Shown: one piece after another, positions 206 through 46,184 of the stretch | Layout: each line of letters begins with the position of its first letter | How positions within the stretch are numbered: position 1 is the first letter of the stretch | NCBI RefSeq assembly: GCF_046105845.1 | Contig: NZ_CP151004.1 | Source of the DNA: Escherichia coli | GTDB taxonomy: Bacteria; Pseudomonadota; Gammaproteobacteria; Enterobacterales; Enterobacteriaceae | Direction: 5' to 3' (one strand) | Length of the DNA: 64,000 nt | Program-made: the position numbers and the translations under genes | The notes under the pieces: generated by a model | Told to the model about the DNA's origin: nothing | What the model saw: the letters and a program-made list of their open reading frames with translations, nothing else | The model's database searches: none

Positions 206-376
206 ATGTCAGAACGTAAAGACTCAAAATCACGCCGTAATTATCTCGTTAAATGTTCCTGCCCAAACTGCACCCAAGAGTCAGAACACAGTTTTTCAAG
301 AGTACAAAAAGGTGCCCTTTTGATCTGCCCTCATTGCAACAAAGTATTCCAGACAAATCTTAAAGCTGTAGCTTGA
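206..376 (+). CDS. Small Cys-rich prophage protein, YnfN/YmcF-like (cold-shock-associated)
   Basis: ORF 155..376; internal ATG at 206 preceded by AGGAAA; product MSERKDSKSRRNYLVKCSCPNCTQ... with CxxC...CxxC; lies beside cspB as in K-12 prophage cold-shock clusters. Confidence 0.6.
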   Translation: MSERKDSKSRRNYLVKCSCPNCTQESEHSFSRVQKGALLICPHCNKVFQTNLKAVA

Positions 377-459: not shown

Positions 460-739
460 ATATTGTGGTACTTTTTGTGGGAGTCATCCACTTACGCACT
501 TTGTTTTGCTATGCCAGCAGTTAGCTTCTGCTGTAAAACTATTCATGCAGCAAACCTGCACTTCACCACAATGGTTAGCATACTTTTCCTGATTAAGTTA
601 TTGCCAAATATGCTGGCCATTGTTTCATGTATTGGACCTCCTTACTATTTATTAAAGAGATCCAATATTCACCACTCTGTCTGTATCTCCACTCAGGCAT
701 CAGCCTTCTTCGTTATCGTATACAGACAAACTATGAATT

Positions 740-955
740 TTAATCAGTAATTATGACATTTGCTGCTGCAGGACCTTTAGCACCACTCTCTACAGAGAAG
801 GTAACCTTTTGACCTTCAAATAAGGTTCGAAAATTATCATTCTGAATCGCAGAAAAATGCACAAACACATCTTTACTACCATCAACAGGAGAAATAAAGC
901 CAAAACCTTTATCAGCGTTAAACCATTTTACTAAACCAGTCATTTTATTTGACAT
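740..955 (-). CDS. cspB: Cold shock protein CspB (CspA family)
   Basis: 71 aa [38 protein letters not shown]...; canonical RNP1/RNP2 motifs of the CspA family. Confidence 0.9.
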
Positions 956-1255
956 TCTACATTCCTTAACTTGAGCCTTTCGGCATAAATGGCTTGTATA
1001 ACAGAAACGACTTCGTACTTAATTGGAGAGACTCAAAGAAGGAATAAGTGAATAACACCTGAAATGAGAACTGCTTTAGTAAACTACTTCGTATATCGTC
1101 TGTTCTTCAAACCGACGCAATCATTAACGCATAGTTGAACATATGAAGCAATGTTTATTTTAGACATCCAGCCATCTTCAACCCCATCAAAAAACTATAG
1201 CTTTCTTCAGGAACGTGTGTATAGTGCGCCCAGTTATCAGTATTAAGGAATTTTT

Positions 1256-1468
1256 TTGTCCCGTAAAATGACAGGAATTGTCAAAACCTTTGACGGCAAA
1301 AGCGGCAAGGGTCTTATCACCCCATCCGATGGTCGTATCGATGTCCAGCTTCATGTTTCAGCGCTCAATCTCCGCGATGCAGAAGAAATTACCACCGGAT
1401 TACGCGTGGAATTTTGCCGGATAAATGGTCTGCGTGGCCCTTCAGCTGCCAATGTTTACCTTTCATGA
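1256..1468 (+). CDS. cspF: CspF/CspH-like cold shock domain protein
   Basis: 70 aa [26 protein letters not shown]...; TTG start with AAGGAA RBS; divergent from cspB as the cspB-cspF pair in K-12 Qin. Confidence 0.8.
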
Positions 1469-1755
1469 GCTATATTAAAGCTTTAATTTCAGGCCCCATC
1501 GAATCAAACATGGAGAGTTTTCATGAATAACCCCGTCTGTCTTGATGACTGGTTGATTGGCTTTAAAAGCTTATGCTGTACTTTGACCGTAATAGCTCTG
1601 CTAATAATGTAATATGCAGACTCATTGTATCTAGGGACATAGTACTGGAAGAAAACATTTTAAACATCAGGCAAAGTCACCCGATAAATAATAAGTAAAC
1701 AAACATGAATCCCGGAATGAGATTCAACATCTCTATTACCCTATTTAAAGCACAA

Positions 1756-1780
1756 AAACCCGCTCATCAGCGGGTTTTCT
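1756..1780 (+). terminator. Intrinsic terminator hairpin (cccgct-catc-agcggg + ttttct)
   Basis: Perfect 6-bp GC stem followed by T-rich tract. Confidence 0.5.
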
Positions 1781-1883
1781 ACTTTTTCTTAACGTCGGGT
1801 ATATAAAGCCCATCGTTGAAAAAATTTTATCCATATTTTTTGAAAAATGCAAGCATTACGTCGCCATCTTCGGCGAAAATCAT

Positions 1884-2636
1884 TTATCTCGTCACTTTTC
1901 TTAATTGCACCTCAGCATATGCTTCTTCCTGCCAGCACTTTGTAACCAGTTTATCAATGACATCTGCATATCCTTTGTACCACTGATAATCAGTCAGGTC
2001 TGGTACCAGCTTCTGGACATGACACCGCGCCAGTGTCGTTGGTAAACGACTAAACCGGTTTCCATTGCAACGCCCACAAATCTTATAAACAGGCGCGCCA
2101 TGAAGCCGGGTCCTTTTTTCATCCAGGACAATACCTTTACCCTTACACCCTCTGCACGCTGTGCTGACTTCTCCCTTACCATGACAATGCTGACATAGTT
2201 CCTTCACCCACTCTTCCTTGATAACAGACTCCCCGCTTCTGGAGTATTTCACCACTTCGCGCAATACATTATGAAATCCAGTACCAGCACAAGGCTCACA
2301 GCGAGCCTTACTTGCCGCAGACCTGGAATAATCAGCAAAGGCAAAACTCACAAGGTAAGGGATGATCTGTAACCGGATTTCTTCACTCAATTTGTTCAAT
2401 GTCGGGTTATCCAGTGCCATCGCGTAATTGAGCAGACCTTCAATCGCAAACTGAGGATCCTGAACGCCAGCTTTTGCCAGGAATAAGGCAAACCCAAGCG
2501 GTGCTTTCGACTGCACCATCCCCTGCGCAGCCATCACATCCGTAATCGTTAAACCACCTGAGCCTGTCGCCGGTGCGGCATCACTCAATTTTGGAGATTT
2601 TGGGGAGTAATATTTTGGTAAGGCTTCAAGGTTCAT
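1884..2636 (-). CDS. Phage late-gene antiterminator Q (QuuQ-like)
   Basis: 250 aa from internal ATG (MNLEALPKYYSPKSPKLSD...); Cys-rich zinc-binding region CxxC...CxxC; position downstream of replication/nin-like genes. Confidence 0.85.
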   Translation of the reverse strand: MNLEALPKYYSPKSPKLSDAAPATGSGGLTITDVMAAQGMVQSKAPLGFALFLAKAGVQDPQFAIEGLLNYAMALDNPTLNKLSEEIRLQIIPYLVSFAFADYSRSAASKARCEPCAGTGFHNVLREVVKYSRSGESVIKEEWVKELCQHCHGKGEVSTACRGCKGKGIVLDEKRTRLHGAPVYKICGRCNGNRFSRLPTTLARCHVQKLVPDLTDYQWYKGYADVIDKLVTKCWQEEAYAEVQLRKVTR

Positions 2637-2649
2637 GCTCGTTCTCCAC

Positions 2650-3645
2650 TTACGCCAGTACGCCAATTGCCAGCGCACGATCGATAAAACGAAATATCAG
2701 CTCCAGTTGGGAGCCATACTTCTCTTCAAATGTCACGGTATCCGCATGCAGCTCGTCGTGATGCTTTCTGCACAAAGGCAACACAAAGAGATCATGCGCT
2801 TTTGTACCCATTCCACCCTGACCGTGGCCTATCAGGTGGTGGGGATCATCAGCTGGCTTTCCACAACATGCGCACGGCTGCGTCTTAACCCAGCGCGTGT
2901 ACTTTTCATTAACCCAGCGGCGACGTTTGGGGCGTAACATAAAAGACTCCGGCGACTCCGGATCCACTTTCAGCGCCAGCACCTTTTTCGCTTTATCCTG
3001 GATGATGCTGGTGGCAGGAACCGAAGGCACAAGGTCACTTTCCCGGGTGACAGATGGCACAACAGGCTTCGGTAATCTCAGTGCCTTACGGGCTGCACTT
3101 TCCGGTAAGGCATCCGCCAAATCATTACGAACCAGCCACCAGCACAGTTCCGGCATTGTCACAACGTGACTGTCATCAAAACCGAGATCCCGACGCACGA
3201 CAGACAACACCCAGCGGGCACAGTTATCCGTTGCCATTGATTCCAGCCGTTCCGTGAACTGGTCACGCAGCTGGTTATCGCAGTGCCAGCACAGACGAAT
3301 TGCTCCCGGAGCGTGCCGCATTGTGGTCATGTTCTCGCTGTGCCAGTCGGAATGAGGCCACTGACAGCCCTTTTCACGAAGTAACCAGCTTTCAAGACAT
3401 TCCACGCCACCAGCACGACGGATCACTGCCTCATTGCGGAACACGGCCCGAACGGCAGGATCATCCGCCAGCGGTTGTGATGCCGCCGGAACGGCACCAC
3501 TGGCGAAAGATGAATAACGTTCCGGCTCAGGCTCCAGCAGGACACGCCCCTGCATAAACAGGGGCATCAGCTCTGAACCTGGCCTGAACAATACAATCCC
3601 CATACGCGGGGCAATTTCAGGGGTCAGTAGTGCTCTCACGGTCAC
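2650..3645 (-). CDS. Prophage protein with HNH-like motif (YdfU/DUF968-like)
   Basis: 331 aa; C-terminal CACCGKPADDPHHLIGHGQGG...HDLFVLPLCRKHHDELH resembles HNH nuclease signature. Confidence 0.7.
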   Translation of the reverse strand: MTVRALLTPEIAPRMGIVLFRPGSELMPLFMQGRVLLEPEPERYSSFASGAVPAASQPLADDPAVRAVFRNEAVIRRAGGVECLESWLLREKGCQWPHSDWHSENMTTMRHAPGAIRLCWHCDNQLRDQFTERLESMATDNCARWVLSVVRRDLGFDDSHVVTMPELCWWLVRNDLADALPESAARKALRLPKPVVPSVTRESDLVPSVPATSIIQDKAKKVLALKVDPESPESFMLRPKRRRWVNEKYTRWVKTQPCACCGKPADDPHHLIGHGQGGMGTKAHDLFVLPLCRKHHDELHADTVTFEEKYGSQLELIFRFIDRALAIGVLA

Positions 3646-6718: not shown

Positions 6719-7547
6719 GACGATGCCCTCCGCTGATATTCAGGAGACGGTGAATATGAAAATTAGCCTTATCCGCCAGACGAATACGTTCAGCCTGCAA
6801 GTTAAGAAGGGTTTCTACCAAAACCTGATGCGCCTGCGGATCCGAAAGAGTTACCTTGCGCAGAGCACGTAGTGCAGTTGTTACATAACTGAGTTTATGT
6901 AAGTCTTCATCATTCAGACGAGTGAGGGCTGGGACAGTAGCCATGATGGCAGCCTCCGATAACAGTGAATTACCTTCACCACCGGAAACGCCAATTTCGC
7001 TGGTGGTGAACTGAACGGGGTTGGCGTAACCGGCGTTATCGGAAACCGGCGCACCTTTCGGTGCCCCCGTCCAGCCCACCATAATTTGGGTGTGCACAGA
7101 CACAGACGATAAAAAAGACGCTGGCGCGTCATATATCGCCGATAACATTTCCAGGACGCCAATCCCGTCACCCGCTTTATAAGGTGCCTGAACAGTGTAA
7201 CGTCCCGGAATGGCAGAATCAATGTGCTGGTGGTCCTTCACACTCAACAAAATCACGCCTGAATTTCCACAAAGGACTAAAGCACTCATGCGGGTAGTCT
7301 TTGCGAAGATAGATAACGCGCTGTGTTTCTGGTTCCCAACGAATAACATGGACATAAAGCCCTCTTCCGTCACGAAACCAGCGGTTAAGTTCCCGCACAA
7401 CTCGCCCCCCACAGTCAGGTAAAGTTCTCTGTGGTTACTTACAGCCAGGTGATTTGGTAATCTGCATTCATGCCGTAACAACAGGTGTTCAGCGACACTG
7501 ACCACCAGCTGTTGCGACAAACGGTTATTTGCCGTTAAACTGTTCAT
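6711..7547 (-). CDS. Hypothetical prophage early-region protein
   Basis: 278-aa ORF in the cro-side early operon; no motif recognised. Confidence 0.55.
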   Translation of the reverse strand: MNSLTANNRLSQQLVVSVAEHLLLRHECRLPNHLAVSNHRELYLTVGGELCGNLTAGFVTEEGFMSMLFVGNQKHSALSIFAKTTRMSALVLCGNSGVILLSVKDHQHIDSAIPGRYTVQAPYKAGDGIGVLEMLSAIYDAPASFLSSVSVHTQIMVGWTGAPKGAPVSDNAGYANPVQFTTSEIGVSGGEGNSLLSEAAIMATVPALTRLNDEDLHKLSYVTTALRALRKVTLSDPQAHQVLVETLLNLQAERIRLADKANFHIHRLLNISGGHRHA

Positions 7548-18606: not shown

Positions 18607-18693
18607 GCGAAGGTGGCGGAATTGGTAGACGCGCTAGCTTCAGGTGTTAGTGTCCTTACGGACGTGGGGGTTCAAGTCCCCCCCCTCGCACCA
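18607..18693 (+). tRNA. leuQ: tRNA-Leu (CAG)
   Basis: 87 nt GCGAAGGTGGCGGAATTGGTAGAC...CTTCAGGTG...CCTCGCACCA; anticodon loop CTTCAGGT (CAG); encoded CCA. Confidence 0.95.
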
Positions 18694-18721
18694 AAAACCA
18701 CGTTGATATTGCTCGCACTGG

Positions 18722-18808
18722 GCGAAGGTGGCGGAATTGGTAGACGCGCTAGCTTCAGGTGTTAGTGTTCTTACGGACGTGGGGGTTCAAGTCCCCCCCC
18801 TCGCACCA
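18722..18808 (+). tRNA. leuP: tRNA-Leu (CAG), one variable-arm substitution vs flanking copies
   Basis: 87 nt; identical to copy 1 except C-to-T at 18769. Confidence 0.95.
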
Positions 18809-18842
18809 AACGAGGCGATATCAAAAAAAGTAAGATGACTGT

Positions 18843-18929
18843 GCGAAGGTGGCGGAATTGGTAGACGCGCTAGCTTCAGGTGTTAGTGTCCTTACGGACG
18901 TGGGGGTTCAAGTCCCCCCCCTCGCACCA
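18843..18929 (+). tRNA. leuV: tRNA-Leu (CAG)
   Basis: 87 nt; identical to copy 1. Confidence 0.95.
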
Positions 18930-44248: not shown

Positions 44249-45615
44249 GTGCGGAGAAATTGCCGGAGGGGTGGGTTGAGTGTGAATTATCCGAACTCGG
44301 TAACATTGTTACAGGGAAAACTCCCAGTACCAAGGAGCCTTCCAATTTTGGAGGCAGCATTCCTTTCATTAAACCAGGCGATCTTGATCTCGGTGGCTAT
44401 ATCATGAATACCGCCGATACTCTGACGGAGAAAGGGTTATCTCTTGTCCCCACTCTTCCTGCCAATTCAGTCGTTGTGACGTGTATTGGAAATTTAGGAA
44501 AAGTTGGAATTACCGCTAAAAAATCAGCATCTAATCAACAAATAAATGCATTGATCCCGTCAGAAAAGCTAAATGTAAAATTTGTTTATTACCAAATTTT
44601 AACATTAAAACCATGGTTAGAGTCTCAATCAGCAGCTACTACAATTGCGATTGTGAACAAGAGCAAATTTTCTCAGGCACCATTTAAATTCCCGTCGCTT
44701 GCCGAACAAAAAATCATCACTGAAAAACTCGATACGCTGCTGGCGCAGGTAGACAGCACCAAAGCACGTCTTGAGCAAATCCCACAAATCCTGAATCGTT
44801 TTCGTCAGGCTATTCTAGCTAATGCTGTGGAAGGAAAATTGACCGACGAATGGCGAGCCGGAAAATGTTATATTACAGAAATCAAAAAAATATCTGATAT
44901 TATTCAGAATGCTCAAGTCGGATTAGTTCGTTCAGCTTCAGATCAAAGCGAAATATGCACTCAAAAAATGAGAACGCCTTATATAAAAATGAATAACATT
45001 CACAATGTTCTCGGAACAAATTTAGAAAAACTCGCTTATGTCAACTGTGATAGCTATGAACTGGAAAAATATAGATTAAAAAATGGAGATTGGCTCTTTA
45101 ATACACGAAATAGTTATGAGTTAGTTGGTAAATCCTGTGTCTGGAATGGATGTAGCAATGCTGTATATAATAATAATATATTAAGAGTTAGACTAAAAGA
45201 AAACTACAATTCTGTTTTTTTAGATTATTGGTTTCACTCGTTCTATGGAGTGAGCATGCTTAATAGTATTAAATCCGCAACAACAAATGTTGCTGCGATA
45301 TATCAGAAAGAACTCTTAAGTAAAAGTGTTCCATTCCCCCCCCTTCCCGAACAAGCCGAGATTGTTCGCCGCGTCGAACAACTCTTCGCCTACGCCGACA
45401 CCATAGAAAAACAGGTCAACAACGCCTTAGCCCGCGTTAACAACCTGACGCAATCCATCCTGGCAAAAGCGTTCCGTGGTGAACTCACCGCCCAGTGGCG
45501 GGCCGAAAACCCGGATTTAATCAGCGGAGAAAACAGCGCCGCCGCGTTGCTGGAAAAAATCAAAGCTGAACGCGCAGCCAGCGGGGGTAAAAAAGCCTCG
45601 CGTAAAAAATCCTGA
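44245..45615 (+). CDS. hsdS: Type I R-M specificity subunit HsdS, apparently non-EcoKI TRDs
   Basis: 456 aa; ATGA overlap with hsdM; conserved N-terminal, central (LAEQKIITEKLDTLLAQVDSTKAR) and C-terminal regions flank two low-GC variable TRDs. Confidence 0.9.
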   Translation: MSAEKLPEGWVECELSELGNIVTGKTPSTKEPSNFGGSIPFIKPGDLDLGGYIMNTADTLTEKGLSLVPTLPANSVVVTCIGNLGKVGITAKKSASNQQINALIPSEKLNVKFVYYQILTLKPWLESQSAATTIAIVNKSKFSQAPFKFPSLAEQKIITEKLDTLLAQVDSTKARLEQIPQILNRFRQAILANAVEGKLTDEWRAGKCYITEIKKISDIIQNAQVGLVRSASDQSEICTQKMRTPYIKMNNIHNVLGTNLEKLAYVNCDSYELEKYRLKNGDWLFNTRNSYELVGKSCVWNGCSNAVYNNNILRVRLKENYNSVFLDYWFHSFYGVSMLNSIKSATTNVAAIYQKELLSKSVPFPPLPEQAEIVRRVEQLFAYADTIEKQVNNALARVNNLTQSILAKAFRGELTAQWRAENPDLISGENSAAALLEKIKAERAASGGKKASRKKS

Positions 45616-45765: not shown

Positions 45766-45842
45766 GTATTTAGCGCGGTGCGGATGTGCGCCAACACACC
45801 CGCACCGCTCATCACAATCACTATTCCAGGAGAATAGCAGTT

Positions 45843-46184
45843 ATGACTGACACGCATTTTATTGCACAACCGTTCGAAGCAGAAGTCTCCCCGGCAAATA
45901 ACCGTCAATTAACCGTGAGTTATGCGAGCCGCTACCCGGATTACAGCCGTATTCCCGCCATCACCCTGAAAGGTCAGTGGCTGGAAGCCGCCGGTTTTGC
46001 CACCGGCACGGCGGTAGATGTCAAAGTGATGGAAGGCTGTATTGTCCTCACCGCCCAACCCCCCGCCGCTGAAGAGAGCGAACTGATGCAGTCGCTGCGC
46101 CAGGTGTGCAAACTGTCGGCGCGTAAACAAAAGCAGGTGCAGGCGTTTATTGGAGTGATTGCCGGTAAACAGAAAGTCGCGTAA
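45843..46184 (+). CDS. symE: SOS-induced toxin-like protein SymE (AbrB/SpoVT fold)
   Basis: 113 aa [52 protein letters not shown]... Confidence 0.9.

Follow-up and report, generated by a model that had tools for sequence, protein, structure and literature searches.

The short reading frame downstream of cspF in a Qin-like prophage of Escherichia coli is the known gene ynfS, which encodes a conserved 29-residue protein with a predicted membrane anchor

A short reading frame that begins 54 nt after the stop codon of a cspF gene in an E. coli prophage raises two questions: is it a gene, and if so, what might its product do? The DNA analyzed, referred to here as the window, is a stretch of 64,000 nucleotides from contig NZ_CP151004.1, and all positions are numbered from its first letter unless another record is named (Table 1). 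A preliminary description made from the letters alone had proposed a small hydrophobic protein at this place, with an ATG, a GGAGAG ribosome-binding site and an intrinsic terminator about 150 bp downstream. The start codon, the ribosome-binding site and the 29-codon open reading frame (ORF) are all present as described, and the terminator begins 143 nt past the stop codon. The first 4 kb of the window hold 72 ORFs of at least 20 aa, so a 29-codon ORF alone is no better than chance. This ORF is raised above chance by comparative conservation, which covers its start, its stop, its Shine-Dalgarno sequence and an excess of synonymous changes.

The ORF is already known, named, annotated in RefSeq with the exact allele and, for the K-12 allele, experimentally detected. 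In the record of E. coli 2013C-3033, whose DNA is 100% identical to the window over 1200..1900, the same 29-aa ORF is annotated as WP_122985741.1 ("hypothetical protein") between cspF and ydfT. The equivalent position in the cryptic prophage Qin of K-12 MG1655 is occupied by ynfS (b4750, YP_009518791.1, "protein YnfS"). The window protein and K-12 YnfS are identical at 27 of 29 residues, with T22 and M29 of the window protein replaced by A22 and I29 in K-12. The Shine-Dalgarno sequence and the start codon are the same in both, and the mean column identity over about 700 nt around ynfS is 97%. Pfam family PF23697 ("YnfS") matched the window protein over positions 1-29 of 29 with 76.7 bits (E 1e-21; gathering threshold, 27 bits), and it also matched all 12 of the YnfS variants tried, Citrobacter included. 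No model in PHROGs, NCBIfam or PADLOC matched YnfS, and a PDB profile search with the protein gave a single chance-level match (E 1.2).

YnfS of K-12 was among 36 small proteins detected by immunoblotting of chromosomal SPA-tagged fusions (VanOrsdel 2018; PMC6001520). The same paper lists ynfS with 29 aa in the cspF/ydfT interval, at 1642122-1642211, and scores it positive in tetracycline-inhibited ribosome profiling as well (PMC6001520). Strong start peaks at K-12 ynfS were also seen with retapamulin and Onc112 (Weaver 2019; bioRxiv 10.1101/511675). The two checks that the preliminary description had proposed, ribosome profiling and expression of a tagged fusion, had thus both been published with positive results for the K-12 allele (PMC6001520; bioRxiv 10.1101/511675), and the translated small protein that it proposed for a Qin-like prophage, after a cspF-like gene, corresponds to the named K-12 gene with its own Pfam family. 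We are confident that the ORF at 1523..1612 is a true protein-coding gene, ynfS, carried by a lambdoid (Qin-like) prophage; this confidence extends to what the gene is and to its being real, not to how its product acts. The earlier finding was therefore correct but ordinary. A 2024 survey of the y-ome counts ynfS among the uncharacterized Qin genes (PMC11551758).

Table 1. Positions of ynfS, its signals and neighboring genes, and of RNA landmarks elsewhere in the window
Feature	Position	Strand	Details
ynfU, small zinc-ribbon protein	206..376	+	Annotation; Pfam PF23499, NCBIfam NF038384
cspB	740..955	-	ORF, annotation; cassette member
cspF, atypical CspA-family paralog	1256..1468	+	TTG start, 70 codons; annotated in 2013C-3033 and K-12; NCBIfam NF012007 CspF, 160 bits
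ynfS Shine-Dalgarno sequence GGAGAG	1512..1517	+	5 nt before ATG, 7 nt from GGAG core
ynfS coding sequence	1523..1612	+	29 aa plus stop; ATG 1523, TAA 1610..1612
ynfS 3' UTR	1613..1754	+	Poorly conserved; unalignable with Citrobacter
Two-way GC-rich hairpin, A-run on one side and T-run on the other	1755..1778	both	cspF-ynfS terminator (+); tR'-like terminator (-)
Predicted lambda-type late promoter pR'	1809..1852	-	-35 TTGCAT 1852..1847, 17-nt spacer, -10 TAAAAT 1829..1824
ydfT/quuQ-type antitermination protein Q gene	1884..2636	-	Convergent with ynfS; Pfam PF03589 Antiterm, E 1e-52
C4 antisense RNA next to isrK	6999..7187		
Three tandem tRNA-Leu(CAG) (leuQPV-like array)	18607..18929		
SymR antitoxin RNA	45772..45848		

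We scanned viral contigs with CspF, which gave 80 loci; pooled with the window and the reference loci, these comprised 44 distinct sequences. A YnfS-like ORF lay directly downstream of CspF in 80 of the 80 viral-contig loci. Of the 44 distinct sequences, 42 preserve the ORF at 29 codons, with its start, stop and Shine-Dalgarno sequence unchanged, and the conservation across Qin-like prophages that had been put forward as a check was confirmed by this comparison of related loci. The two exceptions, both from IMG/VR E. coli prophage contigs, are loss-of-function alleles in otherwise identical DNA, one with K15 changed to a stop codon (L030) and one with ATG changed to ATA (L047). Three divergent clades, with CspF proteins 83-87% identical, encode MNQTVYLSDWLTGLKSLCSTITMTILLFI, MYPKIYLNDWLTGLKSSCCTLIVTILLFI and MYQKIYLNDWLTGLKSSCCTLIVTLLVFI, each with the same 29-aa length and 48-55% identical to the window protein. 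Between clades, the cspF-ynfS spacer and the sequence past the stop codon are unalignable (47-61%; spacer, 47-53%). Clades from both E. coli and Citrobacter retain GGAGAGTTT and the ATG as well as the frame and the stop codon position.

By the Nei-Gojobori method, dN/dS of ynfS between clades was 0.2-0.35 where computable, versus 0.06-0.1 for cspF in those same clade pairs, and the excess of synonymous over nonsynonymous change was significant in five clade pairs (Fisher p 0.02 to 4e-7). Ten positions are invariant, namely, M1, L7, D9, W10, L11, G13, K15, C18, T20 and L26. The sequences within the E. coli clade differ by 2 to 4 nonsynonymous and 0 synonymous changes. As judged from these alignments, the YnfS family is under purifying selection at the amino acid level, with its length fixed at 29 across Escherichia and Citrobacter.

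Two other ORFs overlap ynfS, one of 41 aa at 1573..1698 (+) and one of 34 aa at 1563..1667 (-). We rejected both, as each runs into DNA that is unalignable between clades. A search of phage genomes by tblastn found YnfS encoded in the Escherichia phage records 2H10 (100% identical), PhiR42_1, HannyBb and PhiR63_1. The PhiR63_1 record annotates the nonconserved 41-aa ORF (2551..2676, equal to window 1573..1698) in place of ynfS, and the 2H10 record leaves the place of ynfS unannotated; the gene is thus overlooked or miscalled in phage records.

Within E. coli, the gene is widespread but far from universal. Of 5,426 complete E. coli genomes, 1,405 (~26%) matched the ynfS region (window 1469..1800) over at least 80% of its length, most with a K-12-type allele (~92% nucleotide identity to the window) and 64 with the window type. 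Some 300 further complete genomes retain only the terminator part. E. coli LF82 has a 251-bp deletion, window ~1458..1708 (2300..2600 of locus L006), that takes out all of ynfS, together with the 3' end of cspF and most of the 3' UTR; what is left of cspF also carries a frameshift. The terminator-only genomes suggest that this deletion, or a similar one, is common in E. coli. These roughly 300 deleted genomes, the nonsense and start-loss alleles, and the exclusively nonsynonymous changes within the E. coli clade show that ynfS is dispensable. An exact-sequence look-up placed the window and K-12 alleles, each found on at least 1,000 contigs, in one 52-member cluster whose variants are single conservative substitutions. 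Outside Escherichia, when each bacterial species was represented by a single genome and scanned with the YnfS alignment, four species representatives were hit, all Citrobacter; within this sampling, the family is therefore limited to these two genera.

Four genes, ynfU (+), cspB (-), cspF (+) and ynfS (+), form a cassette that ends with ynfS and that was complete in 58 of the 59 loci with enough flanking sequence; the LF82 deletion accounts for the remaining one. Of 88 loci examined, 87 had cspF and ynfS together; in the remaining one, LF82, both genes are degraded. In the window prophage, ynfS lies between the Q gene and the holin gene, as it does in the Escherichia phage records; in that of 2H10, the arrangement is near-identical. 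The leuQPV-like array, symR and the C4 RNA in the window place this prophage in a different chromosomal neighborhood from that of K-12 Qin.

Three Citrobacter loci show other settings for the cassette. In Citrobacter sp. FP75 (L088), it is again located between a Q gene and lysis genes, although the Q gene there is a different and shorter one. In C. braakii ATCC 51113 (L089), its neighbors are ars genes and a tRNA-like sequence, and the vicinity shows no obvious phage genes. In Citrobacter sp. On2M (L090, 3700..4090), cspB-like sequence and inverted cspF-like sequence are fused into one chimeric minus-strand ORF, which leaves cspF destroyed; the ynfS ORF persists there with a less hydrophobic tail (...TLVVTTLSVI), which may reflect decay.

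A consensus promoter scan of 900..2000 found no plus-strand promoter for cspF or ynfS. The gap between the two genes holds no terminator, the sole plus-strand terminator in 900..2000 being the one at 1755. From this layout, we infer that ynfS would be cotranscribed with cspF as the end of a "moron" cassette (ynfU, cspB, cspF and ynfS) located between the phage Q and lysis genes. The cassette would run opposite to late transcription, the cspF-ynfS transcript would end at 1755..1778, and ynfS would be initiated independently from its own strong Shine-Dalgarno sequence. An Rfam cspA thermoregulator match at 677..1116 (-; 156 bits) covers the cspB leader and gene, and there were zero such matches upstream of cspF, which suggests that cspF-ynfS is not under a cspA-type cold shock RNA switch.

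The hairpin at 1755..1778 has the features of a terminator on both strands. On the plus strand, a 10-bp stem is followed by CTACTTTTTC (fold, -14.4 kcal/mol; z = -5.6 versus shuffles), and on the minus strand, the hairpin read from 1778 to 1755 is followed by UUUUUGUGCUUU (fold, -27.9 kcal/mol; z -4.5). The ynfS 3' UTR that leads up to it differs between the window and K-12 by a 7-nt indel and ~8% divergence. A second, weaker terminator-like hairpin on the minus strand, at 1706..1726, consists of TGAATCTCATTCCGGGATTCA followed by TGTTTGTTTA; it lies past the tR'-like terminator, within the ynfS 3' UTR.

The minus strand also carries a predicted late promoter that faces ynfS from the Q gene side. 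The sequence AACGATGGG at 1817..1809 (-) is identical to the 9-mer that directly follows the -10 element of lambda pR'. In lambda (44550-44620), just downstream of the Q gene, TTGACT, a 17-nt spacer and TAAATT are followed by AACGATGGG at a spacing equal to that in the window. We take the element at 1852..1809 to be a late promoter pR' with a sigma-70-dependent pause and a Q-loading site, in which AACGATGGG matches the promoter-proximal pause element of lambda. By analogy with lambda, then, 1809..1852 (-) may function as a lambda-type pR'. The short basal transcript from this promoter would stop at 1755..1778, before ynfS, and Q-modified polymerase would read past the hairpin, antisense through ynfS and cspF, toward the lysis genes. 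The cassette would in that case be expressed mainly and undisturbed in the lysogen, with antisense late transcription in lytic growth.

What the product may do has to be approached through its composition. The first nine residues of YnfS are polar or acidic. Over the 19 residues from 11 to 29, the Kyte-Doolittle mean is 2.19 for the window protein and 2.46 for K-12 YnfS, and the Citrobacter proteins reach 1.6-1.9, which is marginal against the usual threshold of 1.6. K15 lies inside the hydrophobic segment and is followed by an uninterrupted hydrophobic run of 14 residues, so a full membrane span requires the lysine within the helix. AlphaFold drew residues 7-28 as one helix at low confidence. 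As predicted from hydrophobicity, YnfS is probably a single-helix peptide anchored C-terminally in the inner membrane; a literature search found no report on its fractionation or localization. Residues ~10-29 would form the anchor and leave about nine polar or acidic residues in the cytoplasm. With an anchor at the extreme C terminus, insertion would have to follow the end of translation, and the published SPA tag, which is C-terminal, would alter such an anchor.

Other small membrane proteins of E. coli offer an analogy for the mode of action: YnfS may, like them, bind and modulate a larger membrane protein of the host or the phage. We put this forward tentatively as the reading that we favor, at somewhat less than an even chance. 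The contact surface would consist of the invariant residues D9, W10, G13, K15, S16, C18 and T20. Conservation falls on alternating positions (7, 9, 11, 13, 15, 18 and 20; residues 7-20, window 1541..1582), with a power peak near 170 degrees, and a permutation test for the 100-degree periodicity of a helix gave p 0.88, both from nine sequences only; a single conserved helix face is thus without support.

Alternatively, YnfS and CspF could form a two-gene module in which, for example, YnfS tethers or regulates this aromatic-poor Csp paralog at the membrane, which we consider unlikely. The aromatic residues of the RNA-binding motifs are missing from CspF and CspH, two proteins without a known function (PMC6719143). 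The two genes are strictly adjacent and decay together in LF82, but adjacency may reflect only the common descent of one cassette, and the K-12 paralog cspH has no ynfS-like ORF downstream, where IS1 sits instead. The alternating conservation in residues 7-20 is strand-like rather than helical, whereas an AlphaFold2 model of a CspF-(GGGGS)5-YnfS fusion draws YnfS as a lone helix. That model, built from a 15-row paired alignment, is uninformative as to any interaction (mean pLDDT, 51, with 38-56 in the YnfS part; pTM, 0.39). We regard as quite improbable a fuller version in which ynfS and cspF are a coinherited module whose tail-anchored peptide recruits or controls CspF at the membrane, serves superinfection exclusion or the survival of the lysogen in long-term stationary phase, and is turned off through antisense transcription in the lytic phase. 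cspF is upregulated in long-term stationary phase, and its deletion had no effect there (PMC7406224).

It is similarly improbable that YnfS is a membrane-damaging type I toxin or holin-like peptide, held in check by antisense transcription and acting in lysis timing, abortive infection or prophage maintenance. With its 29 aa and hydrophobic tail, YnfS is near TisB and ShoB in size and composition, but the chromosomally tagged K-12 protein is detectable in ordinary LB cultures with no reported toxicity (PMC6001520; bioRxiv 10.1101/511675), and an exposed strong Shine-Dalgarno sequence with strong initiation peaks is unlike the tightly repressed type I toxins. ynfS does adjoin the lysis cassette, and a potential late-promoter transcript covers its full length in antisense. 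However, that transcript is the phage late operon, on only in lytic growth, and the sole antisense promoter found is pR', whose basal transcript would end before ynfS. There were zero Rfam families within 1200..1900, so no antitoxin RNA was found there; no dedicated small antisense RNA is known, and PADLOC gave no match.

Only the act of translating ynfS might matter, for example by keeping Rho or RNases off the long 3' region of cspF, with a functionless peptide as the by-product. ynfS lies toward the 3' end of the cspF transcript, its stop codon 143 nt from the terminator, which would suit such a role, as would its dispensability in many strains. We nevertheless consider this very unlikely, because the sequence, the exact length and the ten invariant residues are kept over ~30% nucleotide divergence with many synonymous changes. 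Translation alone would not impose a dN/dS of 0.2-0.35 together with a fixed length and invariant residues. Finally, the abundance of short ORFs in this DNA would allow ynfS to be a chance ORF and no gene, a reading that we count as already refuted, with next to no probability, by the published protein detection and ribosome profiling of the K-12 allele, the curated Pfam family and the conservation pattern across clades.

These comparisons, which go beyond what the cited papers report, are modest additions rather than a new finding. They consist of Citrobacter homologs of fixed length, a core motif, purifying selection, the four-gene cassette and the putative antisense late promoter, and they could guide a functional study of the y-ome gene ynfS. 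If YnfS had a defined membrane target or a partnership with CspF, this would be the first function for YnfS and for the enigmatic CspF/CspH branch of the cold shock family.

Set against its nearest relative, window YnfS shares with K-12 YnfS the 29-aa length, the Shine-Dalgarno sequence, the position between cspF and a Q-family antiterminator gene, and the terminator. It differs in that its host prophage is more complete than Qin and sits near leuQPV and symR, not at the K-12 Qin site. The Citrobacter YnfS proteins (C. braakii ATCC 51113; Citrobacter spp. FP75 and On2M; IMG/VR loci L068-L086) have the same length, Shine-Dalgarno sequence, cassette and PF23697 match, and the same core, L-x-DWL-x-G-x-KS-x-C-x-T, followed by a hydrophobic tail. 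In contrast, they are 48-55% identical to the window protein, carry Y in place of C6 and, in one clade, S in place of C19, and have a less hydrophobic tail.

YnfR (beside cspI) and YmcF/YmcE (after cspG) are likewise encoded by short genes beside members of the CspA family, in some cases within the same prophage, but they have no sequence similarity to YnfS. YnfR (MKAPSGAFLLGVYSMDTHILR) is not a membrane-type peptide and is cold induced (PMC6001520). The preliminary description had likened the ORF to small membrane proteins often coencoded with cold shock genes in prophages. The likeness to a small membrane protein holds in that YnfS is hydrophobic (Kyte-Doolittle 2.2) with a predicted membrane location, whereas "often coencoded" is a loose analogy, because YnfR and YmcF are unrelated to YnfS in sequence and YnfR is not hydrophobic.

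The type I toxins TisB, ShoB and Ibs resemble YnfS in having ~19-30 aa, hydrophobicity and a potential antisense overlap; YnfS differs in having no known dedicated antitoxin RNA, in being detectable in normal growth and in having no reported toxicity. AcrZ, MgtS and MgrB represent a class of small E. coli proteins that cross the membrane once and modulate larger membrane proteins. YnfS shares with this class a length of less than 50 aa, one hydrophobic helix (predicted in YnfS), its own Shine-Dalgarno sequence and discovery in the same tagging and profiling screens. It stands apart from these proteins in the placement of its hydrophobic segment at the extreme C terminus, in the lysine that interrupts this segment, and in being prophage borne and narrowly distributed.
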